Counted from the first letter of the stretch, positions 1 through 13,626 are shown. The stretch: DNA of 64,000 nucleotides from an uncultured Candidatus Micrarchaeota archaeon (GCA_963760615.1 CAVXDX010000014.1:71999-135998); one strand, 5' to 3'. Numbers and translations are program-made. Notes: a model not told the origin generated them from the sequence alone.

Positions 1-330
1 AAACGTTTTCGGAATGCAAAATGTTATCTCGGGATATCATACGGTAAAACAAAACCTACATTAAAAAGAGGTATAATACACCAGATTAGTGGCCAAACAT
101 TTTGGCATTTTGTAAGTGGGAAAAAGAACTTTTATAAGGAGATAATCGAACCGATAGGATACAAAGCGAAAGAACTTAATCATGAATTCAATCATAATAA
201 AGCCAGATTGATAAATAGACTTACTCGTGAATTTTCAAATGATTTTTGCGATAAGGACGGAAGGATACTTTGGGATAACATAGTTGAATTTAATTCGGGT
301 AATATGACAAGAATGACTTTGCTGACTTAA
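1..330 (+). CDS. 3' end of a type II restriction endonuclease, EcoO109I/PmeII-like (5' part outside window)
   Basis: Own translation of frame 1, open from base 1 to TAA at 328-330: ...YLGISYG...ISGQTFWHFVSGKKNFYKEIIEPIGYKAKELN...FCDKDGRILWDNIVEFNSG, resembling the C-terminus of EcoO109I-family enzymes (GQxFWxxxSG, IIEPxG, W..IV.FNS). Not in the ORF track. Confidence 0.65.
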   Translation, partial: KRFRNAKCYLGISYGKTKPTLKRGIIHQISGQTFWHFVSGKKNFYKEIIEPIGYKAKELNHEFNHNKARLINRLTREFSNDFCDKDGRILWDNIVEFNSGNMTRMTLLT

Positions 331-358
331 TTAATTTATGCGCAAAGCCGAGAAATTT

Positions 359-568
359 TTATTTGTTTAGACTCGTTTTCTTTATAAAAACCCTGAATCC
401 TCTCCTTTCTATCTCAATCTTCTCTCTTGCCTGCATTTCTTGGATGAATTCCAAATATTTCTTCACCGTCCTCGGGTGCAGCTTGGAAGCTCGGCAAAGC
501 TTGTTGAACGTGACCGGCTCATCCGAGAGAGCCGCCATGATCTTCTCCGCAATCTCGAGCTGCACCAT
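359..568 (-). CDS. Small winged-helix/HTH DNA-binding protein
   Basis: 69 aa; VTFNKLCRASKLHPRTVKKYLEFI is a helix-turn-helix pattern followed by a basic beta-wing (IEIERRGFRVFIKK). Confidence 0.65.
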   Translation of the reverse strand: MVQLEIAEKIMAALSDEPVTFNKLCRASKLHPRTVKKYLEFIQEMQAREKIEIERRGFRVFIKKTSLNK

Positions 569-638
569 AAGGACACCATTAAACGGCCTGCTTAGTTAGG
601 TGCGCCAAGGGATAATTGCCTTGCCGCAGACAGGCTCG

Positions 639-689
639 TTCCTAGGAAATCAGTTGCGGAAGTCTTTCCTGGGAAGCGGTTCCGCGGAA
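639..689. promoter_or_regulatory. Three TTCC-N2-GGAA palindromes in a divergent intergenic region (putative operators)
   Basis: ttcctaggaa 639-648, ttcctgggaa 666-675, ttccgcggaa 680-689, between the HTH gene (-) and ORF 697 (+). Confidence 0.45.
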
Positions 690-696
690 GTGGAGC

Positions 697-882
697 GTGT
701 CTTGCAGGCATGATACGAAACTGCCGAATTCGGCACAAAGGGATAAATCCACTCGGCACGCCACTCGAGGCATGACAGAAGAAGAGGTTGACAGCCAGCT
801 GCCTAGGTGGTACGTGGAGCTGAAGAAGGCTTACAAGGAACGCTTGGAAGGGCAGAAGAAAGATGGGCTGGGAAAGTCGTAA
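697..882 (+). CDS. Small hypothetical protein
   Basis: 61-aa ORF with a charged helical C-terminal half; no motif recognised; start uncertain. Confidence 0.4.
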   Translation: MSCRHDTKLPNSAQRDKSTRHATRGMTEEEVDSQLPRWYVELKKAYKERLEGQKKDGLGKS

Positions 883-964
883 TTGAGGGAAAGGAGTATA
901 CGGTTTAAATCGGTTTTTTGCTTATAGCTACATCGCATTAGCAATAGCAAGAGGTGATGGTTTT

Positions 965-1537
965 ATGAAATGCCCTAATTGTGAGAAAGAAATAACAGAT
1001 GAGAGAGCGAATTATTGCGGCCTATGCAGTTATTGGCTGAAAGAACCGCCATACAAGAGCTATTTGGAAAGATTACACGAAGAGGGCAAGCACGAAATAA
1101 CTAAAGTTGTAATCCCACTGCTGCATGAGAAATATGATTTTTTTGAAAAGTTGAGGAAAGAACACCCCATGCAATACAAGCAGGTAAGGGAATCCAGGGA
1201 TTTTTTTGAACTAGGGTTTTTGTTCGGGTTTTACGAGGGGATAGCCGACAGGATGAAAGAGGAAATCAAAGAAAAGGAGGATAAAGTGGGTACGAACCCG
1301 CCACCAAAGAGAGATCATATCGAGGTACCAAGTAGCGGGAAAAGCGGTTTTGAGATTGTCAAGCTTTACAACTACCCTGAAAAGAACCATGCTATAATCC
1401 GGCTTAAAAAAGGCACCATAGAGAACCTGGGCTTGCCGTATGATGTGCAGTATAACAAACCAATGTTGGCAGAGGTCAGGAATGGCGTTTTGCTGCTTAA
1501 GGTTATCAAGGAGTTGATTCATGATGAGTTCGAGTAG
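965..1537 (+). CDS. Zinc-ribbon protein, possible C-terminal AbrB/SpoVT-like domain
   Basis: N-terminal CPNC...CGLC; SD-like GAGGTGA upstream; C-terminal HAIIRLKKGTIENLGLP...LAEVRNGVLLLKVI resembles a swapped-hairpin fold (weak). Confidence 0.6.
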   Translation: MKCPNCEKEITDERANYCGLCSYWLKEPPYKSYLERLHEEGKHEITKVVIPLLHEKYDFFEKLRKEHPMQYKQVRESRDFFELGFLFGFYEGIADRMKEEIKEKEDKVGTNPPPKRDHIEVPSSGKSGFEIVKLYNYPEKNHAIIRLKKGTIENLGLPYDVQYNKPMLAEVRNGVLLLKVIKELIHDEFE

Positions 1538-1682
1538 TAAGCAGGAAGTATATACCTTACATAGAGCAATATCGCACGACTATGCTTCGGATTAGTGTTT
1601 TACAAGTTCTCAGTCTTTTTTATGCGTATTTCGGTCATTCCAAGCAAAAACAGATTTAAACAACTTCAAATAATATGTACAT

Positions 1683-2300
1683 ATGAAAAAAACGGATTTC
1701 AGAGAGACTAGGACGCAAGTCACGAAGAAACGACTTAGCAATGTTTATCAGCGGATTCAGGAGGCATTGGAGAGCAATTGTGAGAACCTCACTCTTGAAC
1801 GAATAGAAGAACTTAGAACACAATTTATAGAAGAGTATGCGGATCTTATTGACTACTCATTCGACCGTGCTCTCAGAAAAATACTGGGAAGTAAGACGTT
1901 GATAGAGTTGGGATATGTAGAAGCAGAAACAAGAGATTCGGAAGGTGCTGACTACGAAGCATTAGCATTAAAATATGCAGGTCTTCCCCCGCATCCACTT
2001 TCCAATTTAACTCCCGGCATGAATCGTATAAATAGTCTGGAGCTGACTATAATAGAACTCAACGCGCCAGAATATTTTGAATTTGAAAAAGGACCCTACA
2101 AATTCATCCGCGGCCGAGTTAAGGACTCTTCCGGGGACTTTCCCATATTATTTTGGGGTGACCAAGGTGATAGAATACACATCGGAGACAAAATAAAAAT
2201 AATAAACGCTTATGTCAAAAAATATGAAGACGACGAGCGAATACACATAAAAGGGGGACCATTTCTGGTTGTTGCAAAAAGAAGCCTTATTTTGCCATGA
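1683..2300 (+). CDS. OB-fold (RPA/SSB-like) nucleic-acid-binding protein
   Basis: C-terminal IRGRVKDSSGDFPILFWGDQGDRIHIGDKIKIINAYVKKY matches the archaeal RPA/SSB OB-fold pattern (D.SG.I.L..W...GD.I.I.NAYV). Confidence 0.7.
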   Translation: MKKTDFRETRTQVTKKRLSNVYQRIQEALESNCENLTLERIEELRTQFIEEYADLIDYSFDRALRKILGSKTLIELGYVEAETRDSEGADYEALALKYAGLPPHPLSNLTPGMNRINSLELTIIELNAPEYFEFEKGPYKFIRGRVKDSSGDFPILFWGDQGDRIHIGDKIKIINAYVKKYEDDERIHIKGGPFLVVAKRSLILP

Positions 2301-2301
2301 T

Positions 2302-3513
2302 CTAAACCGGAATCGCAACTCCGTTTTTGATAAGCTTCTCCACAACCATCTTCTTGAACTCGGGATCATTCATCAATTTATTCATTATCTCGTCAGCATT
2401 TTTCCTTTCCTCCTCAACCTGCGCCATCATTTGCGCGTTCATCGGAGTTCCGCAGCGCAGGCAGAACTTCGCCGCCGGGGAATTCTTCTCCCTGCAGCGG
2501 GGGCAGAAGCAGACCTTCAGCTCCTCCTCTTTTTTATCTTCGGGCTTCGCCATGCCCTGCAACGCCAGAAGCGCTTGGTCAACATCCCGGCCGGACAGAT
2601 GAACATAAACGGAAGCCATGTCGCTGTTCTGGGTCCAGCCGAAGTACTCCTTCATCTGAGCTTCCGTGAGCTTGGAGGCGAGGAATGTGGCCCTGGAATG
2701 GCGGAACAGGTGCGGGTAGATCTTCTTCTTGATTCCTGCCTTCTCTGCCAGGGTTTCGAGCACCTTGTAGACCGACCGGTGCATCGCGGCAAGGTTTGTC
2801 GCGTGGTTGTTGTTCGAGCGGGGTGGCCAGAGCACGGCTTCCGGGTCTTTCGCCCCTTCGTAATGCTCGAGCCACGATGCCAAGGCAGGTGCCGAGCTGA
2901 TGATCCTCACGCGCCTGTCGCCGGTCTTGCCTGTCACCCTCAAGGTCGCGCCGTACTGGTCGAAAGCGACGTTCTTCACCCTGAGGGAAAGCAGCTCGCC
3001 GATGCGGCAGCCTGTCTCGTACAGGACAAGCACCATGGCCTTATCTCGGGGCGTCTTTGCAGCCTCCACCATCCTCAGGACTTCCTCCTCGGTCAAGAGG
3101 GATTCGGGCAACTTGTGGCTGTGGTTCCTCACTCTCGGCCTGAGCCAGGAGACCTCGCGGGGCATCTGCTCATCATCCCCTTTGAGCCACTTGTAGAACA
3201 TCTTCAAAATGACCTTGAAGTCGTACTTGGTGTTTTCCGCGTACTCCTTGCTTTCGATGCTGCCGACCAGCGCTATGATGTCTTCCTTGGTAGCCTGTTC
3301 GAAGGGCTTCCCGAGCCAGCCCGACAGCCTGCGGAGGCAGTAGATAAGCTTCACAACACGCACCTTGGTGAACCCCTTGGCCAGCCAGGTGTTGGCGAAT
3401 TTGAGTATGAGCTGCCTGTTCTGGGGCAGCACTGCCTCGTCCTTATCCAGCCTGGCAAGGGCCGCATCCAGGTCCGTTGTGCTGCCGTATATCGAGCCTC
3501 CGCTGATTCTCAT
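2302..3513 (-). CDS. Tyrosine recombinase/integrase with C-terminal zinc ribbon
   Basis: Catalytic residues in order: TGCRIGE (R), TGKTG (K), HLFRHS (H-x-x-R), FGW (H/W), SVYVH (Y); N-terminal core-binding domain; C-terminal CPRC...CLRC. Confidence 0.95.
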   Translation of the reverse strand: MRISGGSIYGSTTDLDAALARLDKDEAVLPQNRQLILKFANTWLAKGFTKVRVVKLIYCLRRLSGWLGKPFEQATKEDIIALVGSIESKEYAENTKYDFKVILKMFYKWLKGDDEQMPREVSWLRPRVRNHSHKLPESLLTEEEVLRMVEAAKTPRDKAMVLVLYETGCRIGELLSLRVKNVAFDQYGATLRVTGKTGDRRVRIISSAPALASWLEHYEGAKDPEAVLWPPRSNNNHATNLAAMHRSVYKVLETLAEKAGIKKKIYPHLFRHSRATFLASKLTEAQMKEYFGWTQNSDMASVYVHLSGRDVDQALLALQGMAKPEDKKEEELKVCFCPRCREKNSPAAKFCLRCGTPMNAQMMAQVEEERKNADEIMNKLMNDPEFKKMVVEKLIKNGVAIPV

Positions 3514-3589
3514 GGTAATGCCTCTGGGAACAGGTCTATATTTTGCTTGGTGCAGGATTCCGCACTTTCGTGTCTATATGCCCTTTTCC

Positions 3590-3648
3590 ACCTTGAGCTT
3601 AATCCTCTGGTTGCGGTCGGAGCACTGAGCCATAGGCTCAGGTTGCCA
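3590..3648 (+). repeat. Core-repeat site R1 (degenerate arm A + core + arm X)
   Basis: accttgagcttaatcctctggttg-CGGTCGGAGCA(3614-3624)-ctgagccataggctcag-gttgcca. 28 nt (3614-3641) identical to R4; 24 nt (3604-3627) identical to R2. Confidence 0.9.
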
Positions 3649-3767
3649 CCCGCCCAAGCGATTTTGCCTTGTTCCTGAGGGTGGTTCTGAGTGGCAAGGT
3701 TTAAATAGACTGCTACGACTCTTCGTACGTTATTGGAAAGCGCTTGATTTAACAACCAGGGGATATG

Positions 3768-3785
3768 TCATTTCCGCGGAAATGA
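3768..3785. promoter_or_regulatory. Perfect 18-bp palindrome TCATTTCCGCGGAAATGA
   Basis: Self-complementary; contains the same TTCCGCGGAA as 680-689; lies between the integrase upstream region and the Fic stop codon. Confidence 0.5.
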
Positions 3786-3811
3786 GGTGACCACACTCGT
3801 GGATTTTGTAG

Positions 3812-4753
3812 TCACCTTTTCTTGAGCATCTGTTTGAGCGCACGGTATTCTTTCAACATCAGTTCAATAGTTGGCCGAAGGTTGTGGTTTTTCTCGTAAG
3901 CCTGCAGTGCTGCGTAGTACTGCTGTCGGTTCTTGAGTTCGATATTAATTGGCGGCATCTTGTGCTGTATAAGGATGTTGTTCAGCAGGAGCCTTCCAAC
4001 CCTCCCATTTCCATCCTGGAATGGGTGAATATTCTCAAATTGATTATGGACTACTGCAGCTAAAACTAGTGGCGAATAGCGGTTTTTGTTTTTATCATAC
4101 CATCTGACAAGCTCCAGAAGCAGGACTCGGACACGTGTTGAAGGCGCTCCCCGGTGGACTATTCCTCCGCGTCCGTCCGTTACCACAACTTCCACTCCAT
4201 TCTCCCTTAACTTGCCGGCAAAAGGCTTTGAGTTTTCAAAAACAATCCGATGCAGCTCAAGAATGAGCGGCAGCGAGAGATGATCACCGGTTTTCCTTAT
4301 GAATTCGATGGCCTTTGCTACCCCGTAAGTTTCCGAGATGTCTTCTTTTGATTTGTCCGGCCATTTATTCTTTTCGAGTATCTCCGCAACTTCTTTTGGA
4401 TCTATGGTGGAGCCTTCAATTGCGTTGGTGCTGAATGTGAAAGCTTCCGTGAACTTTACCCAGTCTTCATCGGAAAGGTGTGCTATTTTTATGTGCGCCT
4501 TTGCCTCCAGGGTCCTTAATTCCTCAAGCTCTTCGGATGATAAAACAGTCTCAAATGGATCGGAAATTTGCCTGCTTGCATCCACCCGTGCGCTAAGTTT
4601 TTTCTTTGCATCCTCTATACGCCGTTGCAACTCACTCTCGCTGAGGTTAGACCCCAGGTATACCCTAAGCTTTCTGACCTTTCCAGCCTTTCTGATGGAG
4701 TGGGCAAGATAGTACTTTTTTATGCCCTTTCCTTCACGGATCTCTAAGTGCAT
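3812..4753 (-). CDS. Fic (Fido) domain protein, class II-like
   Basis: Canonical HPFQDGNGRVGR motif; upstream TNAIEG fits the (S/T)xxxE(G/N) inhibitory helix. Confidence 0.93.
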   Translation of the reverse strand: MHLEIREGKGIKKYYLAHSIRKAGKVRKLRVYLGSNLSESELQRRIEDAKKKLSARVDASRQISDPFETVLSSEELEELRTLEAKAHIKIAHLSDEDWVKFTEAFTFSTNAIEGSTIDPKEVAEILEKNKWPDKSKEDISETYGVAKAIEFIRKTGDHLSLPLILELHRIVFENSKPFAGKLRENGVEVVVTDGRGGIVHRGAPSTRVRVLLLELVRWYDKNKNRYSPLVLAAVVHNQFENIHPFQDGNGRVGRLLLNNILIQHKMPPINIELKNRQQYYAALQAYEKNHNLRPTIELMLKEYRALKQMLKKR

Positions 4754-4880
4754 AATGTTATTGGGTGACTACTATTTATAAATATTTGCATTAAAGGTGA
4801 CTACTAGTTGGTAAAGCTCCTCGCTAGTCTGTGAAGAATTAGGGTCCACACGGGTTTTAGGGGGCACATATTCCTGCATA

Positions 4881-4922
4881 TGGCAACCTGAGCCCTTGCC
4901 TCTGGTTGCGGTCGGAGCACTG
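4881..4922 (+). repeat. Core-repeat site R2 (arm A + core)
   Basis: tgGCAACCTGAGCCCTTGCCTCTGGTTGCGGTCGGAGCActg; 37 nt (4883-4919) identical to R5; arm A forms a GCAACC-t-GAG/CTC-t-GGTTGC hairpin. Confidence 0.92.
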
Positions 4923-5080
4923 CCGGAGATCGGAACTGGAAATAATGCCTAGTTTCAAGCCAAAAAGAGGGAAGTGGGCGGAAGGGGTTGCTCCGGAAAA
5001 TGGTCTGCTCTGCCGGAAACTCTGTGTTTTGTTGCATTTCTGGAGCATGTTTAAATATTGGAAAATGCATAAACTAATCC

Positions 5081-5986
5081 ATGGTCTTTAGAGAGAAGGA
5101 ATCCAGAGAACTTCCTGCTTTCGATAAGATTCAGATAAAGGGTACTCTCTCGGAAAGATTCAAGGATCATTTTGAGGATCATCCATTAAAAATTCTTGAC
5201 ACCAACTTCTATAGGAATAAGTTCGCCTTAGAATGGTTTGACAAGATAGTCCACGATCTTAAGAAGACTCAGAGCAACATAACCATAAATGAGATAGGTC
5301 TTGGCATAGAAGACAAGATAGGAAAATATGAAATAAAATTTCGCCTTGGAGAAATGAGATTAAAGCTGAAGGAAATGCTGGCACCGAAGAAAACAACCTA
5401 TGAGACTTTCGAACTGTTGAATATTCTGAGAAATGCAGGCATAAAACCAGAACAGTTCAGTCTCTATGCAATGGATATAAGGGAGGATGTGCTGCTTGCA
5501 GTGAAGTCAACAAAGGTGCTGAAGGTGGTTACTTCCAAGCTGCTTGCTGACATGCCAACCGATGTCCTGGAGAATGAAAGCGCTAAGAGACTTACGATTG
5601 AGGAGAATGAATACGCTAAGAAATTCTTCCCTGATCTACAAGGCAAGAGTAGGAACAGTAAAGAGCCCTCGCTCGCTAGGGTACTGGAAGTGCGGATACC
5701 ACGGAATTATGCCAATAGGGTTGTGTGTCCTGAACCGCTTGACATCACGAAAACTCCTGCTCCAGTGAAGGCGGACATAACCTTTTCCTACATATTTTCC
5801 TGCCCGGAGAGGGAAGAGCGCTTTTCCAATCTTGCAAAAAGCACAAAGCCAGGTGGATACATTATAACTGAACTTAGTGAGGAGATTAGCCCTGCTTTCT
5901 TGGAGAAAATTGGCGTAGAAAAAGTATTTAGTAACCCTGGTCATATAATGGAGGGGTGCGTCTACAGGGTCAAGCCAACAGCATAA
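5081..5986 (+). CDS. Divergent class I SAM-methyltransferase-like (CheR-like) protein, paralog 1
   Basis: Motifs INEIGLG, YETFEL, LYAMDIREDVL, ADITFSY, LAKSTKPGGYI in the CheR order; similar to 8085-8849. Confidence 0.55.
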   Translation: MVFREKESRELPAFDKIQIKGTLSERFKDHFEDHPLKILDTNFYRNKFALEWFDKIVHDLKKTQSNITINEIGLGIEDKIGKYEIKFRLGEMRLKLKEMLAPKKTTYETFELLNILRNAGIKPEQFSLYAMDIREDVLLAVKSTKVLKVVTSKLLADMPTDVLENESAKRLTIEENEYAKKFFPDLQGKSRNSKEPSLARVLEVRIPRNYANRVVCPEPLDITKTPAPVKADITFSYIFSCPEREERFSNLAKSTKPGGYIITELSEEISPAFLEKIGVEKVFSNPGHIMEGCVYRVKPTA

Positions 5987-6025
5987 TTGTTCTCAGATGT
6001 GACTTTTCTGGGCAATCCTAAGTGA

Positions 6026-6065
6026 GGGGATTTAAGAACTCGTAGACATAAGCTCGGTCGGAGCA
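6026..6065 (+). repeat. Core-repeat site R3 (arm B + core)
   Basis: ggggatttaagaactcgtagacataagctCGGTCGGAGCA; 36 of 40 nt identical to 7832-7871. Confidence 0.9.
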
Positions 6066-6131
6066 ATTTACTTTTATCTGAGTACTCTCCCTTAGCTCAA
6101 CAGAAGAACATGCGTCCCTTAGTGACGTTTT

Positions 6132-6605
6132 TCAGGGGAACACAGTCAAATCCCCAAGACGATTTTTCAGCTCCCCCTGGCAGTATTCAATGCCGTAGAT
6201 CAGAGATGTAACCCACCTTTGGTCAAACTTTCCCCTTTCATACATGCAGGTCATGTTCTTTCCCTGAAGCAGGTTCTTCATCTCCTGGCTTTCATTGGCG
6301 TTCAAGCTTACAAGCGTCTTTGTAAAGATGCAGGATTCAGAGGACGAGTAGCTGAAAGTCCCGACCTCGTCAGTAACGGTTAGATTTATATTCTCGCAAT
6401 TATTTGCCGCTGCGATGAAGCATGTTTCGTCCCCGCAGGTCGCATTTGTTGAAGGTGCAATCGTTAAGTTTTGTGTATTGTTTGTGGAAACATTCTGGGC
6501 AGGAGGGAAAAGTCCACAACAGCCTGCCAAGAAAAGAAAAATTCCTGCCGTCAGCAAATATGCAACTCGCATTTCTATGATTTTTTGTTTTATCATAATT
6601 CTCAC
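6132..6605 (-). CDS. Cys-rich putative lipoprotein
   Basis: Hydrophobic stretch ending FLAGCCG (lipobox-like), N/T-rich linker, multiple Cys; true start probably downstream of 6605. Confidence 0.75.
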   Translation of the reverse strand: MRIMIKQKIIEMRVAYLLTAGIFLFLAGCCGLFPPAQNVSTNNTQNLTIAPSTNATCGDETCFIAAANNCENINLTVTDEVGTFSYSSSESCIFTKTLVSLNANESQEMKNLLQGKNMTCMYERGKFDQRWVTSLIYGIEYCQGELKNRLGDLTVFP

Positions 6606-7639
6606 TTAACAGCTACGGCATTCACGACATCCTTGTTAAGACCTAGTGTTAAAAAAAGCTTTTCACTCCAGGTGCTTGTGTCGGAGGATTCTTTCTGGAC
6701 ATCCATGTCATATAAGCCTCCTTGCCAGTTACCCTTTTCACTGCTCATTTTTCTCATCAACAAGCTGTTATCCGGTTTTGGGAATTTTGAGAAGCCCAAC
6801 TCCTTGGCGAGGTTCTTTTCCATCGCTTCCTTCATGCTCTCGGTTACCGCTCCGCTGTTTAATGCCCTGTCCATATACTCATAGTATTCATGGGGCAGTC
6901 CTTGGGTTTTCTTCAGCTCGGCCATGTCCACGTTTGCCTCGAAGTTGTTTGGATCTGCTTTAAGTATTGCGTTGTATTTTGCCTCGATAGACGGTTCTAA
7001 ATTGTCTATCTGGTCCTGCTTTTGTTTGAGTTCAGCAGCGGTTTGGGGGGTGTTTAAAAGAAGATTCTGAGCCCTTAAAAAAGGGATTTGGTTGCGTAGA
7101 TCGAAATCATTGTTCAAATCGTCGCGTGCGCTTGAAATTTGCTCCTCAGTTGTCAGTTCCGGCGGCTTGCTTGGAGGAATTACGACAGTTGGAGCCGGGC
7201 AACCATTTACAATTCTTCCGCTGAATGTAGTGGAACCACTGCACGAACCTTCTGAATCGCTATACTGCCAGGTGTAACTCCCAGTAAATGTCAAACAATC
7301 TGAGCTAAAGGTCACGTCATAAGGTGATAGTACTGAAGTTCCATAGCCATCGGGAACCGACCTGCCGGGTATATGAAGGACGTTGCCGTCAACTATTCCG
7401 CTAGTCACCCCATGACCGATATCCCCCATCTGAGCATGTTTTAGATTGAACTGTATCGTAATGGTAGGATGAGTAACTATAACCCCGCTTTGGCAATCAC
7501 GTTCATCATCGCTAACATCTACACGCCATTGGGTGGTGCCGGTATATTGATCCCAACTCCAAGGAGGCAGCGAGACCTCGGCTCTAACCAAGTGTATTAG
7601 AAGCAGTGCTGAAATAAGCAGTACAGCAATTCTGGGCAT
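6602..7639 (-). CDS. Secreted hypothetical protein (beta-rich N-domain, Pro linker, TPR-like C-domain)
   Basis: Signal peptide MPRIAVLLISALLLIHLVRA; PAPTVVIPPSKPP linker; ILKADPNNFEA...YMDRAL TPR-like helix pair; stop overlaps the start of the next ORF. Confidence 0.75.
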   Translation of the reverse strand: MPRIAVLLISALLLIHLVRAEVSLPPWSWDQYTGTTQWRVDVSDDERDCQSGVIVTHPTITIQFNLKHAQMGDIGHGVTSGIVDGNVLHIPGRSVPDGYGTSVLSPYDVTFSSDCLTFTGSYTWQYSDSEGSCSGSTTFSGRIVNGCPAPTVVIPPSKPPELTTEEQISSARDDLNNDFDLRNQIPFLRAQNLLLNTPQTAAELKQKQDQIDNLEPSIEAKYNAILKADPNNFEANVDMAELKKTQGLPHEYYEYMDRALNSGAVTESMKEAMEKNLAKELGFSKFPKPDNSLLMRKMSSEKGNWQGGLYDMDVQKESSDTSTWSEKLFLTLGLNKDVVNAVAVK

Positions 7640-7831
7640 GTTAATGCTTTCTGCGTTAATTGTTTAAATATTTACTCCTCGGCAGACGAATTCTGCCAAG
7701 GCGTGCTTTATCCTGTTTATCAAGGTGTCAGAATTTCTAGGAAGGACAGGGTGCTGTTGTTGTCATGCAACTGACATTGTATTGTAATCTGCTCTGCTAG
7801 ATATACTAGACAAAAGCAATTTTAAATGTGG

Positions 7832-7888
7832 GGGGATTTCGGAACTCGTAGACAGATGCTCGGTCGGAGCACTGAGCCATAGGCTCAG
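7832..7888 (+). repeat. Core-repeat site R4 (arm B + core + arm X)
   Basis: ggggatttcggaactcgtagacagatgctCGGTCGGAGCA(7861-7871)ctgagccataggctcag; left arm shared with R3, right arm with R1. Confidence 0.92.
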
Positions 7889-8084
7889 TTCCTCACTTTT
7901 GCGGAATATATTCTTGTTCCCGACATGGTTCAGCCTGTGAGCTTTATAAAGACTGCGTCTATGGAAGCAATTTTGTCATCTAGCTGATAATTTGACCGGC
8001 TTGTTGAATTGGTTGTTTTGTGCCTTGATAATCGGTGTTGTAAAGATGATACTTATTTTAATGGAGAAAGAGTAAGATAACTTA

Positions 8085-8849
8085 ATGACAACCAAGCAGA
8101 AACAGCCCAGCGAGGAGAATTTTAACCAGTTTAGGAAGGAACTGGATAAGAGAGTTTCTCAAGAAATTATGCAGAATCAGAATCAAAATATAGAGAATAT
8201 AATGACCTGGTTTGGAAGGCATCCATGGGCAACCTTGCAATTCGGCAAGAGATTGTCAGAATTCAAAGACTCAAATGAGATAATCAGGGTCAACAACATA
8301 GGCATAGGAATTAGAGGTATAGGGGATGAAGGAGAGCGGGTACCACCTAATATGAAATCTCACTATATTTCGTACGAACCTTTAGAGCTGCTCAACCAAG
8401 CAGCTAAGATTCTGGAGCCAAAACAGCTGATATTTTATGCAGCAGATACACGAATGGATACACTATTGCATCTTAAATCAACAAAAACCGTACGGATGCA
8501 TGAATACCTGCACAGAGAGTATTTCAAGGCATTTTTTCCCGAAGTCTTGCACAGGAAAGAGGGGGATAACATCGCAGTGGATATACCGGAAGAGTGGAAG
8601 GACAGGATAGTCTATCTCAAGCTCAATATCCTAAAACAGCCAGCACCGGTCAAGGCGCATGTAACATTCTCATACATCCTAGACCTTTACCAGAGGCCTG
8701 AGTATTTTGAGAACCTTGTTGCAAGCACGAAGAGGGGAGGCTATGTGTTCTGCGCAGCGGGACCGAGGGATGAAACACTCAAGAAATTAAATGTTGAGTG
8801 GATACACCCCGTGAGATATCCTGAGCCCGGCTTATTGCACCTCAGATAG
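8085..8849 (+). CDS. Divergent class I SAM-methyltransferase-like (CheR-like) protein, paralog 2
   Basis: VNNIGIG, SYEPLELL, FYAADTRMDTL, PAPVKAHVTFSY, LVASTKRGGYV; shares PAPVKA.(I/V)TFSYI and STK.GGY with 5081-5986. Confidence 0.55.
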   Translation: MTTKQKQPSEENFNQFRKELDKRVSQEIMQNQNQNIENIMTWFGRHPWATLQFGKRLSEFKDSNEIIRVNNIGIGIRGIGDEGERVPPNMKSHYISYEPLELLNQAAKILEPKQLIFYAADTRMDTLLHLKSTKTVRMHEYLHREYFKAFFPEVLHRKEGDNIAVDIPEEWKDRIVYLKLNILKQPAPVKAHVTFSYILDLYQRPEYFENLVASTKRGGYVFCAAGPRDETLKKLNVEWIHPVRYPEPGLLHLR

Positions 8850-8888
8850 TATAGTTGATGCTTATTTGAGTGAGGTTTGTGAATAGTA

Positions 8889-8925
8889 GCAACCTGAGCC
8901 CTTGCCTCTGGTTGCGGTCGGAGCA
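8889..8925 (+). repeat. Core-repeat site R5 (arm A + core)
   Basis: GCAACCTGAGCCCTTGCCTCTGGTTGCGGTCGGAGCA, identical to 4883-4919; last copy found in the window. Confidence 0.92.
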
Positions 8926-8958
8926 TTTATGATTTAAGTGCTCTGGCTTGCAATGGGA

Positions 8959-9948
8959 CTACGTACCGAAAGGAAAGCTGCCAACATCTGCAGTATTGGT
9001 ATAGCCCCTCGACTCCCAGTAGCCCTCAACTTCCTTGTCAACAACTTCGATGCTAGTTATCCACTTCGCCCACTTGTAACCGTACTTGTGCTCCGCAACA
9101 AGCTGGAATGGGAAGCCTCTCTCGGGGGGAAGTGTAACATCGTTGATGCCGTATGCCAAGAGCAACCGCTTGCTTCTTATGTAATCCAAGGGCAGCCCTG
9201 TTGAGTAGCCATCGGAGGAATGAAAAACCACGTATGCTGCATTGGGTTTAAGTTTTGCGCGGTCTAGCAGATCTGTCAAGCGGAATCCAGTCCACTTTGC
9301 AGTGAACCCCCATCCCTCCACGCATGGCATATAGGCAACCTCCGAGTAAGCAGGCAGCTTCAGCAGCTCATCATAGGAAAGGTTAAGCTCATCTTCAACC
9401 AAGCCGGTCAGCTGAAGCCTGTAAGCTTTCCTGTCTATGTACTGCGTCCCCAGAATTGCATTGTTCCCCTGCTCGCTGAGGAGAGTTAGTTTCATACCCT
9501 GGAATTCCTTTGCCTCAACCTCTGGCAGAGTGCTTGAAGCTGGAACCTGCAGAGTTTGATTCTGGGGGGCTAACTGCCCAGGCACAGTATTCACCAGACC
9601 GGTAAGTAGCATCACTCCACCCAGAAGTGATGCAAAAGCCAGAGCGGCAGCAAGATAGCCGACCCAGTAGTGCTGCGCAGATCTTTTCTTGGAGACTGCA
9701 ATACTAGCAAGGTTATAAAGAGAAACTAGCAATGCGGCTGTTCCAAGCCAAATGTGGAGTTTGTGCATATCCCAACCAGCAAGGTTAAAATTACCTTCAT
9801 AAATGTAGCCTATGAGTCCGATTATTGCAAAGAAAGCCATTGCATAGCCAATGATTTTGTGCTGGTTTTTATTCTTTACAAAAACAAGCAGGATGGTTAA
9901 AATTGCAGCAATGGCAGAAGGAATCCAGTGCAGCTCTGAGAATACCAT
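8959..9948 (-). CDS. Molybdopterin-dependent oxidoreductase (sulfite oxidase/MsrP-like) with N-terminal membrane domain
   Basis: CVEGW, W.G..L.DLL, DGYSTGLP, LAYGIND..LPPERGFP.QLV...KYGYKWAKW motifs; four N-terminal TM segments. Confidence 0.9.
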   Translation of the reverse strand: MVFSELHWIPSAIAAILTILLVFVKNKNQHKIIGYAMAFFAIIGLIGYIYEGNFNLAGWDMHKLHIWLGTAALLVSLYNLASIAVSKKRSAQHYWVGYLAAALAFASLLGGVMLLTGLVNTVPGQLAPQNQTLQVPASSTLPEVEAKEFQGMKLTLLSEQGNNAILGTQYIDRKAYRLQLTGLVEDELNLSYDELLKLPAYSEVAYMPCVEGWGFTAKWTGFRLTDLLDRAKLKPNAAYVVFHSSDGYSTGLPLDYIRSKRLLLAYGINDVTLPPERGFPFQLVAEHKYGYKWAKWITSIEVVDKEVEGYWESRGYTNTADVGSFPFGT

Positions 9949-9956
9949 GTCTAGGT

Positions 9957-10625
9957 TTACTCCGGCATATGGCTGCCATCGCAGAATGGCTTGTTTGAAG
10001 ACTTACCACAGCGGCATAGAGTGACTCTGTTGCGGATTTCATAGGTGAAGCCATCGCAGGATTCTATTGGAATACCTCCGCGCACCCAGATGGGACCGCC
10101 GGCTCGTGCCTGTGGGTCCTCCACTAGACCGATGGATTTCTCAAATATGGGCTCGATGGCTTTTCCGGTTTTTTTATCATGAACTACAAGTCTGCCAGAA
10201 GGACAGTTTACTGCCTCCTCTATTGCAAGCTTTACAGCATTGTCTTCATTCTGCATCACAAGCTCCCAAACTCCACTTGCTCTGTCGCAGAAACGGGCTA
10301 CGGCGCAAAGTTCCTCGGCATCAGTCAACTTAAGAGCCGGGCCTTGGATTACTTCGGCACGCTTTGCATAAGGCTCTCTGCCCGCAGTCTCAGTTCCGTC
10401 AAATTTCACCTTGGCGTGCGTCCCGTCACAGAATGGCTTGTTTTTGGACTGCCCGCAGCGGCAAAGGTAGTAATTTTCCTGTATTGGGTATTTCTCCCCC
10501 TCGCGCCATTCACAGGGATAGCCGTTGGAGTCAAGTATAATCATCTGTTTTGCAAGCGGTATTCCACCAGAAACAGAGTAAGGCCCATCCTTGATTAATT
10601 TAATCCTATAATTCAATCCAGCCAC
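9957..10625 (-). CDS. CDGSH iron-sulfur domain protein (two CDGSH-type motifs)
   Basis: LCRCGQSKNKPFCDGTH and LCRCGKSSNKPFCDGSH flanking a CAVARFC...CPSG ferredoxin-like segment. Confidence 0.92.
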   Translation of the reverse strand: MAGLNYRIKLIKDGPYSVSGGIPLAKQMIILDSNGYPCEWREGEKYPIQENYYLCRCGQSKNKPFCDGTHAKVKFDGTETAGREPYAKRAEVIQGPALKLTDAEELCAVARFCDRASGVWELVMQNEDNAVKLAIEEAVNCPSGRLVVHDKKTGKAIEPIFEKSIGLVEDPQARAGGPIWVRGGIPIESCDGFTYEIRNRVTLCRCGKSSNKPFCDGSHMPE

Positions 10626-10812
10626 TGCAACACCCCGGGTATTCTATTGGTGTTGAATATTAATAAAGCTGCTTGGAGATGAACTTAATTTGCTAGTCTA
10701 GCTTTCCAAGAAAAGGCATTTCATTTTCAGATAACTCATAGTTATCCAAATTTTTAAGATTTTCAGACAATATAAACTAGGCAGAAGGATTCAGTTTTTT
10801 TGCTACATGCCA

Positions 10813-10938
10813 CTAGCTTTCAACTCTCGCAGGGCCGATGAGTAATTCTTCCACATCTCTTATGCAACTCCCACAATACACAAATGACCTATCCCTCTCA
10901 GGGTCGAACAATCTACCGCAGCATGCACATTTTTTCAT
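10813..10938 (-). CDS. 41-aa zinc-finger microprotein
   Basis: Own translation MKKCACCGRLFDPERDRSFVYCGSCIRDVEELLIGPARVES; CxxC-x14-CxxC; strong SD GGAGGTGGTGAGG upstream; below ORF-track cutoff. Confidence 0.65.
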   Translation of the reverse strand: MKKCACCGRLFDPERDRSFVYCGSCIRDVEELLIGPARVES

Positions 10939-11119
10939 GTGCCTCACCACCTCCATAGCAGATTATAACTAAGTTATATTTATAACTTTACTGGCAAAAT
11001 GTGCAAATTTTCCAAATTTTAATGGTTATATGCAGTAATTTTAGTAAAATTTACAATATTATTCAAATAAATTAGAAAAAGTATATCCCGCCGTAATAAG
11101 TTTTTCTCTGAATCTTTTT

Positions 11120-12193
11120 TCAGATTCTTTTTTCTATTAGTTTTGCTAATTCGTTATAAGACTGGCTTTCAGCGGAGTAGAGCACAAAGCTGGAGTAAAC
11201 AAACCTAAGTTCATCTTTCGTGATTTCTTTCCTAGTCTCAAGGTACTTTTTCAGAAATAGCTTCTGATTCTCTACAGAATTCAAGGACAAATTTTCTGAC
11301 ATATTACAGACAGATTTGAGCACATTGCTGATATCCTGCCAGTTATTGGGCTTGGAGGACTTGGTTATTTTTCTGTTATCGGTAAACCCACCATCCAGTG
11401 TCAGGTTCTGCCCTATAAGATGCCTGTGGGACAGACCCAGGTTATGCAGTTTTGCTACATTAATTGCCTCGCTTTCCGCCCACCAGCGTGCGTACCTGCC
11501 AACTTTCATCCCTCGCCCCGTGGCAAATTTTTCAAAATCTTCTGGCATTGCCTCGTCCACTCTAATCAACTCAGAGAAAGCTCTGAGATACAACACAGGC
11601 TGAAAATCCTTGAAGATATCCTTCAATTCCTCAACCTTCAGTTTCTTCCCATCCGCCATTATTACTTCGTCAATTATTATTATAGCAATTGGGGCAGAAG
11701 TGTTTATTCCATTTTTAACGAGTATATTGCTTTTTCTCATGTCTTCAAGTGCAGATTTTAGGTCTACCGCTCCCCAGATGACTACGCCGCATTTTTCTAT
11801 AGTCTCCTTATGGGCGAATAGGACTTTTTGGGGCATTCCCACCCCTTTGATGTCTATGTAGCTGTATGTATTCTTGAGTTTGTCTGCGAATACGACGTTA
11901 AAAAAGACTGACCTTCCATGCTCGAGCATACCCTGCATGTCAACGCTTGCATCCTCTGTACCTGCATATTTTCTGCTCCAGTCAACAAAAACGGCCAAAA
12001 TCTTATCAAGAGTCTTGTTGTTTATAGGAAGAGTGTTGAAAAGCTCATAGTTGAATTCGAAAATCCTGCCTTTTACGCGAGCCATCGGTTGATCGAAGAT
12101 CTGCTCCTTTATTATTTTGTTTGCAGGGAGCGGAACCATGCGATTGACACTCTGCTGTATGTCATCGTCAGGTTTCTTCACAAACTTCTCCAT
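11120..12193 (-). CDS. Kinase-fold/SelO(YdiU)-like hypothetical protein
   Basis: YIDIKGVG, NGINTSAPIAII, LHNLGLSHRHLIGQNLTLDGGFTD resemble the SelO LKGxG and GxxHxxxxxxN...D motifs. Confidence 0.5.
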   Translation of the reverse strand: MEKFVKKPDDDIQQSVNRMVPLPANKIIKEQIFDQPMARVKGRIFEFNYELFNTLPINNKTLDKILAVFVDWSRKYAGTEDASVDMQGMLEHGRSVFFNVVFADKLKNTYSYIDIKGVGMPQKVLFAHKETIEKCGVVIWGAVDLKSALEDMRKSNILVKNGINTSAPIAIIIIDEVIMADGKKLKVEELKDIFKDFQPVLYLRAFSELIRVDEAMPEDFEKFATGRGMKVGRYARWWAESEAINVAKLHNLGLSHRHLIGQNLTLDGGFTDNRKITKSSKPNNWQDISNVLKSVCNMSENLSLNSVENQKLFLKKYLETRKEITKDELRFVYSSFVLYSAESQSYNELAKLIEKRI

Positions 12194-12317
12194 AAGTAGA
12201 TTAGCTTTTTCCAGTAATATAATGCTTTCTTCACTTGAGGAGCAGGAGCCGATCTTTCAGCAGCGGGTCATTCCTGGCTCTAGAAGAAGCTTTTGCATAA
12301 TCTGCATGATTCGGCTA

Positions 12318-13016
12318 TTACCTCAGCGGGGGCAGGCCATAGAAGAAACGGTTGTCCTCAGGCACATCTCTGAATTTGCGCAGCCTGTTAGCAATTGCAA
12401 CGCAGTCTTCTACCGCCCTTGCAGTCTCCTCCCTATTTGTCGGGAATACTTCTATCTCAACAAACATGATTTTCCCTTCGGATATATTCAAAAGACCTCT
12501 CCTCGCAATATGGCCCGTGGAACTGTATTCCCTGTCCCTCTCATTAACTTTTTGATTTAAAACCTGGATTGGAACCTTTTTCAATCCGCTTTCAGCTAAC
12601 CCCTCAAGTATATCAGAAACCGACTCTTCAACCTCGCCGGGAAATTTTTTTACACACGCAATATCCTGGCACTGTACCGTGGCATCCGAAAGATGCATGC
12701 TTAAAACGCTCACTACAGGCTTGAAACCTCCTTTTTCAGATTTCTCCAAGCCGACATCGCTTGCAGTGGGTTGGCGGCAGTTCACGCACACAATCATGTC
12801 GGCACTGTCTTTTGCATGGTCAAACACAAGTGCCATATTGACGGCCTTCTGCTCTATGCTCCTAGCGATTGGACCGCGAATCACCTGAAAGTGATTGTTG
12901 TGCAGTTCTTGTGAAAGCCTGTTTGCAAACTCCGGGTTTTCGCCGCGGTTTATGCTCACCAGTGTCTTGTACTCCCGCGCTTCACTGCCTGCTAGGTTTT
13001 TCTGTGCTAGCGACAT
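12318..13016 (-). CDS. Hypothetical protein
   Basis: 232-aa ORF filling the intergenic space; no motif recognised. Confidence 0.65.
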   Translation of the reverse strand: MSLAQKNLAGSEAREYKTLVSINRGENPEFANRLSQELHNNHFQVIRGPIARSIEQKAVNMALVFDHAKDSADMIVCVNCRQPTASDVGLEKSEKGGFKPVVSVLSMHLSDATVQCQDIACVKKFPGEVEESVSDILEGLAESGLKKVPIQVLNQKVNERDREYSSTGHIARRGLLNISEGKIMFVEIEVFPTNREETARAVEDCVAIANRLRKFRDVPEDNRFFYGLPPLR

Positions 13017-13110
13017 GGGGGTTATTACTCATTATTAGTATTTATACACCTAGTATACTACTCTACTTGGAATTCAATTTAAAAAGGGAATGTGGTATCT
13101 ACTCTAAAAA

Positions 13111-13626
13111 TCATCTCTTCAGTTTTACTGTAGAATCCACAAGGTTTATGATTCTCTCCCTTATCTTCTCATTCTTTAGATTTCCACCATCAAAGTCCTC
13201 ATCAATTGAGAAGACAGGCCTTGGGTTGCTGAGTATGTTGAAGTAGTTCACCAACGCAACAAGATGCCCCCTCACCTGCTGGTGTGTTCCTGCATTGTTT
13301 GACTTTATTATGAAACCTGCAACGCTCTTCTCAAGCGCTTTGTAGTTGACATGCTCGAAGAGGTTTTTTACCCCAGAGCCGAGGAGGGCATCGTAAACCG
13401 GGGAGCCTATGATGAAGACGTCAGCGCTTTCCATGAACTTGACTATATCTGTTGTTTCCTTGCTGTAATTTTCCTCAAATCCTCTGAAGGGCTCTATGTC
13501 GTTTTTGCCCAGGTCTATGTACTCGACATCTTGGTATTTCTCCTTTGCGTATTGGAATGCTATATCTGTCAGCTTTCTAGTCAGAGAATCCTTCCTCCTG
13601 CTGCCGCAGATGATGAGAATCTTCAT
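13111..13626 (-). CDS. NADPH-dependent FMN reductase
   Basis: IICGSRRKDSLT, ADVFIIGSPVYD, GVKNLFE flavodoxin-fold motifs. Confidence 0.9.
   Translation of the reverse strand: MKILIICGSRRKDSLTRKLTDIAFQYAKEKYQDVEYIDLGKNDIEPFRGFEENYSKETTDIVKFMESADVFIIGSPVYDALLGSGVKNLFEHVNYKALEKSVAGFIIKSNNAGTHQQVRGHLVALVNYFNILSNPRPVFSIDEDFDGGNLKNEKIRERIINLVDSTVKLKR

Follow-up and report, generated by a model that had tools for sequence, protein, structure and literature searches.

The 3' end of a tRNA gene is the commonest target of integrative elements. The concept of cis-mobilizable elements (CIMEs) and of their accretion reportedly goes back to Pavlovic, Bellanger et al. Several described systems can be set beside the locus reported here. 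First, the tandem islands at the ssrA gene of Dehalococcoides are bounded by repeats of the 3' end of that gene, and 15 of them are devoid of an integrase and were proposed to be cis-mobilizable (PMC3146451). Second, CIMEs and their site-specific accretion with the integrative and conjugative elements (ICEs) of Streptococcus have been reviewed (PMC5704250, PMC7563491). Third, arrays that result from the re-use of one site are on record for tyrosine-recombinase elements of archaea and bacteria (PMC6563490, PMC8371274). In addition, integrons have been reported in Archaea (bioRxiv 10.1101/2022.02.06.479319). In the present study, we analysed a stretch of 64,000 nucleotides (the window; C14:71999-135998 of a 1.14-Mb genome in 16 contigs, G000; GCA_963760615.1, CAVXDX010000014.1) from an uncultured Micrarchaeota archaeon of the genus Ca. 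Fermentimicrarchaeum, in which positions 2302 to 8925 carry a tyrosine integrase gene and an array of short modules separated by an 11-bp repeat. An earlier interpretation made from the DNA alone (the sequence-only reading) had taken this array for an independent archaeal system of cassette capture and shuffling with its own recombination site. The results obtained herein indicate that the "cassette array" is very probably a tandem accretion of integrative elements at a tRNA-Glu gene and not an integron. Tandem integration at tRNA genes is already known in bacteria and archaea, and the layout of the locus is its classical product.

The identity of the repeat carries this conclusion. In an exact search, the 11-mer core CGGTCGGAGCA was found five times in the window, at 3614, 4909, 6055, 7861 and 8915, always on the plus strand and at spacings of 1295, 1146, 1806 and 1054 bp, and no extra copy appeared in the window even with one mismatch allowed. 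By chance, a mean of 0.6 copies per window would be expected, and five copies were reached in 0 of 100 shuffles. All five cores lie between open reading frames (ORFs) on the ORF map, and the first is placed 5' of the integrase start (3513, minus strand), 100 bp away; on the number, strand, spacing and intergenic placement of the cores and their distance from the integrase, the sequence-only reading was accurate. The genome as a whole holds six cores, all on the plus strand of contig C14 and confined to 25.6 kb (C14:55312-80923). The sixth lies outside the window, 20,300 bp upstream of the first, is preceded by GGGTTCAAATCC, and forms the 3' end of a tRNA-Glu(CTC) gene identified by ARAGORN at C14:55248-55323, which comes directly after tRNA-Val(CAC) and the alanyl-tRNA synthetase gene. 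Of the 11 nt of the core, three end the T-stem, seven form the acceptor strand and the remaining one is the discriminator base. The tRNA-Glu 3' end, which might have been unrelated to the repeat, is therefore the repeat itself. It follows that the copies in the window are attachment (att) repeats of tandem integration into the tRNA gene, that the supposed recombination site of a separate system is the tRNA end, and that the array is best regarded as a stack of mobile elements, one large with an integrase (E1) and four small without (E2 to E5). A repetitive extragenic palindromic (REP) or miniature inverted-repeat transposable element (MITE)-like repeat, dispersed and unrelated to the integrase, has practically no standing as an explanation, since all six copies lie on one strand within the same tRNA-anchored 25.6 kb and the arm motifs described below occur nowhere else in the genome; the genome scan that had been suggested as a check for such a repeat added a single copy, at tRNA-Glu, on the same strand and contig.

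With O denoting the core and the other letters its arms, the order of the locus is tRNA-O-X[E1]A'-O-X[E2]A-O-Y[E3]B-O-Z[E4]B-O-X[E5]A-O-flank. The features in the window are as follows.

1-3613, right end of E1, a 20.3-kb unit that spans C14:55323-75611 and begins directly 3' of tRNA-Glu
2302-3513, minus strand, tyrosine integrase of 403 amino acids (aa) with an XerA-like catalytic domain and a C-terminal zinc ribbon, at the far end of E1
3588-3712, plus strand, att site 1: A' arm 3588-3613, core 3614-3624, X1 arm 3625 to about 3712
3625-4908, unit E2 (X1...A), 1.3 kb, with a Fic/SoFic-like gene at 3812-4753 (minus strand)
4883-4947, plus strand, att site 2: A arm 4883-4908, core 4909-4919, Y arm
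4920-6054, unit E3 (Y...B), with a gene for a putative CheR-like protein at 5081-5986 (plus strand)
6022-6065, plus strand, att site 3: B arm, core 6055-6065
6066-7860, unit E4 (Z...B), with genes for a lipoprotein at 6132-6605 (minus strand) and a secreted protein at 6602-7639 (minus strand)
7828-7957, plus strand, att site 4: B arm, core 7861-7871, X2 arm
7872-8914, unit E5 (X2...A), with a paralogue of the putative CheR-like gene at 8085-8849 (plus strand)
8889-8925, plus strand, att site 5: A arm, core 8915-8925, the last copy
8926-13110, variable core-less DNA that separates att site 5 from the conserved flank of the chromosome

The sequences beside the core can be sorted into arm classes, with X among the right arms and A and B among the left, and these classes reassort about the core. 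The right arm X is found 3' of tRNA-Glu, at site 1 and at site 4, and contains a hairpin (CTGAGCC-ATA-GGCTCAG), a CTTGTTCC block and a TATA-like block that reads TTTAAATAGACTGC or TTTATAAAGACTGC. The left arm A (..GAGCC-N9-GGTTG) stands 5' of sites 1 (as the variant A'), 2 and 5, and the left arm B stands 5' of sites 3 and 4. The A arm and core are identical between sites 2 and 5 at 37 of 37 nt, the core and hairpin (28 nt) of site 4 are identical to those of site 1, and B and core (44 nt) are 89% identical between sites 3 and 4. Across unrelated cargo, conservation extends over about 100 nt in X and about 20 nt in A. The Y arm of site 2 resembles the right arm of the second core in Ca. Fermentimicrarchaeum limneticum Sv326 (G002; same genus, complete genome), and, among the 29 genomes of the order searched, B arms were found solely in the window genome.

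Several additional features of the arms were observed. Every X arm is closed by a strongly conserved 31-nt block, GGTTCTGAGTGGCAAGG-TTTAAATA-GACTGC or its X2 variant (3681-3712, 7925-7957 and C14:55380-55410), which occurs nowhere else in the genome and looks like an archaeal B recognition element (BRE)/TATA promoter. The start of the X1 arm (3625-3656) is a degenerate copy of the A arm and core, 62% identical to the reference copy and with GAGCC-N9-GGTTG recurring; because of this repetition, attP may hold two tandem binding modules. Beside the A' arm and upstream of the integrase, the motif GGATTCCGCACTTTCGTGTCTAT (3555-3577) is present, as it is at the metagenome loci L178 and L189 and at L032; in L178 it also precedes a non-integrase operon, at the corresponding position of a unit, and it could act as a portable promoter module that belongs to the left arm.

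Herein, we propose that the locus arose by successive site-specific integrations into tRNA-Glu of elements with the same 11 nt in attP. Each integration would restore the tRNA and add one core copy, with the crossover probably within the core, and the serial entry of P-O-P' circles into a tRNA-O site would yield the observed locus order. The attP of the E1 integrase would lie about 100 bp upstream of its start codon. On their arms, E1, E2 and E5 are of one class (X right, A left), and E3 and E4 of a second class (B).

The large unit E1 is bounded on the left by the tRNA-Glu core and X arm and on the right by the A' arm and the core at 3614. Its Pfam-assigned genes encode VirB4/TraG-like ATPases (split, three ORFs), a PrgI-like protein, Cdc6/Orc1, two N6/N4 DNA methyltransferases, an EcoO109I-type endonuclease, a metallo-beta-lactamase (MBL) nuclease and an HD-OB protein, a content by which E1 is recognized as a putative integrated conjugative-plasmid-like element. 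The integrase thus belongs to a 20-kb plasmid-like element, and this part of the earlier claim of an independent system, like its separate site, did not hold. The integrase ORF is intact in the integrated state (PF00589, 77.6 bits), residues 336-357 match Zn_Ribbon_1 of Pfam, and the best match in the Protein Data Bank is the archaeal XerA-like 4a8e, to which the R, HxxR and Y motifs could be aligned. Among NCBIfam models, XerA (NF040815) scored best at 114 bits, below the cut-off of 220, and the identification of the protein as the XerA chromosome-dimer resolvase was rejected. With an intact catalytic gene, and with the tRNA and a direct repeat of its 3' end as bounds, E1 has the make-up of a tRNA-targeting element with a non-partitioned tyrosine integrase. 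A search for a degenerate internal att site within E1 found none. The split VirB4/TraC/TraG-like ATPase consists of three overlapping ORFs of 268, 313 and 485 aa (L008:3385-6503, equal to C14:65384-68502) upstream of the window, and either frameshifts, as a decay of the transfer module, or assembly errors could account for it.

The layout alone, a tyrosine recombinase beside an array of small accessory modules split by same-strand recombination sites, with toxin and defence cargo, recalls integrons. This likeness is superficial, and a canonical integron with IntI, attI and attC cassettes can be dismissed with near certainty. The IntI models gave 51.8 bits (TIGR02249, cut-off 265) and 38.3 bits (PRK15417, cut-off 435), and matched residues of about 118-211 alone, in agreement with the earlier judgement that the integrase is not IntI. 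Neither attC nor attI sites are present: the sites are tRNA 3' ends of double-strand type, without R and L boxes (RYYYAAC/GTTRRRY), and the genes point in both directions, with neither a single orientation nor the logic of a cassette promoter (Pc); both the missing boxes and the mixed orientation had been noted correctly from the sequence. Rfam returned no match over 3400-9200. The folding of the sites as single-stranded DNA was not clearly above that of shuffled sequences (z from +0.6 to -2.5), and the idea of attC-like single-strand folding was dropped because the excess stability was weak or nil and the stems were without compensatory changes.

The small units E2 to E5 measure 1.05-1.8 kb and encode no integrase, and the X and A arms of E2 and E5 are of the same classes as those of the integrase-bearing E1. 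Being flanked by att sites of a related element and devoid of recombination and transfer genes, they have the structure of CIMEs. Their cargo genes lie on both strands. The E2 gene was matched by Fic in Pfam (6e-20) and by SoFic in PADLOC (8e-34), and a 14-bp perfect inverted pair stands at the two ends of the unit. No match in Pfam, NCBIfam or PADLOC was obtained for the four non-Fic cargo proteins. The E3 and E5 proteins are paralogues (35% identical), and an ESM Atlas match (score 0.92) gives a lead, and only a lead, towards CheR-like S-adenosylmethionine (SAM) methyltransferases; the former label "MTase-like" is to this extent supported, while the three family collections remained silent. 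The E5 protein family is confined to the genus among the 201 genomes of the class searched. In E4, an LAGC lipobox and an N-terminal signal peptide are recognizable in the translated products. Beyond the last core, 8926-13110 encodes a molybdopterin oxidoreductase and a CDGSH protein, and synteny with G002, G003, G004 and the metagenome contig L176 resumes at the gene 13111-13626.

Comparison within the genus showed that the content of the locus differs among relatives. In all five other species (G001-G005), the tRNA-Val/tRNA-Glu pair is syntenic and an X arm comes next, and these loci contain a second or third core with an A arm before it and different cargo; in G001 and G005, the locus breaks at contig ends. 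In G002, a single 3.2-kb unit with an ABC-2 transporter pair is followed by A-O-Y. In G004, a single 2.9-kb unit with a P-type ATPase is followed by A-O, and the homologue of 13111-13626 starts 69 bp past the last core. In G003, a 4.0-kb integrase unit (integrase 93% identical) precedes a Fic-plus-ATPase unit, a core and an X arm, and this last X arm is without a partner A-O end. A metagenome scan with the 16-mer GGTTGCGGTCGGAGCA returned mostly chance matches, and the relevant ones were 5 of the 80 matches listed (L118, L173, L176, L178 and L189). Contig L176 differs from the arrangement of G004 by the additional Fic unit, placed precisely at the core and to its left; L118 carries an 858-bp unit; and in L189 an integrase with 96% identity is followed by a different X arm. 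The Fic unit E2 is 88% identical at the nucleotide level in G003, where it comes after the integrase in one 2.56-kb alignment that includes the integrase, and 87% identical in L176, where it follows the P-type ATPase unit. The breakpoints between same-genus relatives coincide with the core, and the content and order of the units vary, as the sequence-only reading had expected of relatives. In the other genera of the family, the tRNA-Glu core is present once, with neither an X arm nor an array. A unit identity above that of the flank was considered as a sign of recent transfer; it was found for L176 against G003 and G004 (92-93% vs 80-82%) and failed for G000 against G003 (88% vs 88%), and for this reason it was not relied on.

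Two further observations concern the tRNA-Glu region. In two other genera of the family, the tRNA-Glu genes of L237 (G008:C25) and L233 (G009:C20) contain an insert of about 27 nt between GGGTTCAAAT and ATCC-CGGTCGGAGCA, which is an intron-like insert in the T-arm region. In G001, about 440 bp of extra DNA lie between tRNA-Val and tRNA-Glu compared with other species (L033, G001:C40:2510-2949).

The association of this integrase with tRNA ends extends over its family. A search for relatives of the integrase found 156, nearly all in Micrarchaeota, and in many of them the distance to the 3' end of a tRNA gene (Leu, Glu, Phe, Thr or Asn) is about 100-180 bp, with a second copy of the end kilobases away; a co-location of repeat and integrase clade in related genomes, proposed earlier as a check, was in this form observed. 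In L062, seven copies of a tRNA-Phe end were found, with the integrase in the tRNA-proximal unit and further units of 0.87-2.7 kb that carry PIN, ParE/RelE and Schlafen/AlbA-type genes. Three to four tRNA-Leu ends are present at each of four loci (L057, L065, L082 and L090), where the arms are conserved and a mini-unit, about 1 kb in size, lacks an integrase. In the window genome, three paralogues of the integrase each adjoin tRNA-derived repeats, and two of them, on contig C8, head two elements stacked at tRNA-Leu(CAG). A generic survey of 11-mer copy numbers upstream of integrases was unspecific at two to three copies, a level that control regions also reached; the arrays cited here are therefore limited to tRNA-anchored cases. 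In the literature, no published description of such tRNA arrays in Micrarchaeota was found.

On contig C8 (C8:36233-74562), a 66%-identical integrase lies 97 bp after tRNA-Leu(CAG), and more copies of the tRNA end occur at 24.6 and 38.2 kb, the former 114 bp upstream of a third integrase (52% identical). In G002, a distant integrase paralogue (35% identical) is present three times with equal match scores at an exact spacing of 25,989 bp (C1:341068, 367057 and 393046), each copy accompanied by the same tRNA-Val-like 25-mer, which looks like a tandem triplication of an element of about 26 kb.

Compared with the systems introduced above, the locus shares with the Dehalococcoides ssrA islands the stacking 3' of one small-RNA gene, the direct repeat of the 3' end of this gene as the boundary of each element, the conserved bases flanking the repeat, an integration module in some elements and a strain-variable content. 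The Dehalococcoides islands, however, are bacterial and use transfer-messenger RNA (tmRNA) and a CcrB-like serine recombinase, whereas an archaeon, tRNA-Glu, a tyrosine recombinase and mostly 1-3-kb units of one or two genes are involved here. As with the CIMEs of Streptococcus, integrase-less att-flanked elements stand in tandem with a related element whose integrase is proposed to mobilise them; mobilisation there was demonstrated by experiment and here is a possibility, and the hosts, recombinase subfamilies and targets differ. With the archaeal plasmids and viruses that integrate at tRNA genes by a non-partitioned integrase (pNOB8 type and relatives), the locus has in common an integrase that remains intact after integration, attL and attR formed by the tRNA 3' end, and tandem integration, but it differs in its Micrarchaeota-centred XerA-like clade with a C-terminal zinc ribbon, in arrays of six to seven copies and in very small integrase-less units.

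Several results weigh against an accretion by serial integration. First, no circular junction or excision product was seen, and scans of viral contigs for the A-O-X junction and the integrase were without match. Second, every same-genus genome is occupied and no empty tRNA-Glu site was seen within the genus, so that insertion is deduced from the other genera and from the differing content. Third, G000 and G003 share a colinear integrase-core-Fic block whose identity (88%) equals that of the right chromosomal flank; the array is thus not shuffling fast, and at least this junction has stayed stable since the two species diverged. Fourth, G002 and G004 keep a unit at tRNA-Glu, yet their closest integrase is only 53-54% identical. 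Fifth, several genomes have variable DNA devoid of cores past the last copy, and processes other than core recombination therefore shape the island as well.

The same results bear on the fate of the small units within a tandem accretion, for which two possibilities are about evenly balanced: the units might be CIME-like satellites, mobilizable in cis or in trans by E1-type integrases, or fixed leftovers of earlier insertions. The satellite view may draw on the intact conserved arms, the lack of integrase remnants, the mini-units at other tRNAs and the different contexts of the Fic unit. The leftover view may draw on the stable junction, the units without a cognate integrase and the decayed ends.

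The leftover view can be sharpened into a fossil array, in which the small units are former complete elements from which deletions removed the integrase and other genes and which are now fixed chromosomal DNA, with E1 alone possibly able to move. We consider this a real contender, with a probability somewhat short of one half. The loss of the integrase after integration has been reported for archaeal elements (PMC8371274), and the core-less DNA past the last core, the X arm of G003 without a partner end, the splitting of the VirB4-like gene in E1 itself and the stability of the integrase-Fic junction point in the same direction. However, none of the small units showed a pseudogene remnant of an integrase, the two arms are preserved with precision, and the X arm is more conserved than the rest of the unit: between G000 and G003, the X arm of the Fic unit is about 96% identical over 90 nt (by eye from the alignment) compared with 88% overall. 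In addition, the mini-unit design recurs at other tRNAs with other integrase subfamilies.

The satellite view, taken further, leads to a working cassette platform and integron analogue, in which A-O-X units circularise and are re-inserted in trans by the resident integrase. The small size of the units (0.86-3 kb, mostly one or two genes), the conserved arms around unrelated cargo, the 37/37 identity between sites 2 and 5 and the occurrence of the Fic unit in different array contexts would suit such a platform, as would the position of the G000 and L062 arrays, both on the integrase-start side, and a cargo rich in toxin and defence genes like that of chromosomal integrons. On the other hand, neither circles nor excision junctions were detected, the integrase-Fic junction has stayed stable between species, the units of G002 and G004 persist without a cognate integrase, the genes run in both directions with no common promoter logic found, and serial integration at a tRNA gives the same layout passively. 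We therefore regard a working platform as rather doubtful. What endures of the cassette inference in the sequence-only reading is that recombination sites are tied to the adjacent non-IntI integrase and delimit discrete integrase-less modules, and active capture or shuffling of these modules by the integrase is possible; an independent system with a site of its own has to be given up.

The genomes of DPANN archaea, Micrarchaeota among them, measure about 1 Mb, and the mobile elements of these archaea are little known. In the present study, one integrase clade was found to stack elements repeatedly at tRNA genes, including many tiny integrase-less units with conserved arms. In the window genome, the two stacked tRNA loci amount to about 64 kb, or about 5.6% of the genome, with 25.6 kb at tRNA-Glu from the first to the last core and about 38 kb at tRNA-Leu on C8. 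The DPANN host, the clade of zinc-ribbon XerA-like integrases, the very small size of the units and arrays of up to six to seven copies distinguish this case from the tandem accretions already described. Whichever fate applies to the small units, the interpretation of the locus as a new integron-like system is corrected. A broader proposal, which at present seems unlikely, is a Micrarchaeota-wide, tRNA-anchored platform for gene capture, in which minimal units of one or two genes, an X arm of about 100 nt and an A arm of about 25 nt would be excised and re-inserted in trans by the XerA-like zinc-ribbon integrase; if it were true, symbionts with tiny genomes would swap genes for defence, toxins and transporters in an integron-like manner. 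If the small units are mobile, they would be an archaeal counterpart of CIMEs and cassettes and a route for the exchange of accessory genes, and, if they are immobile, the locus would be a clear record of serial integration and decay.

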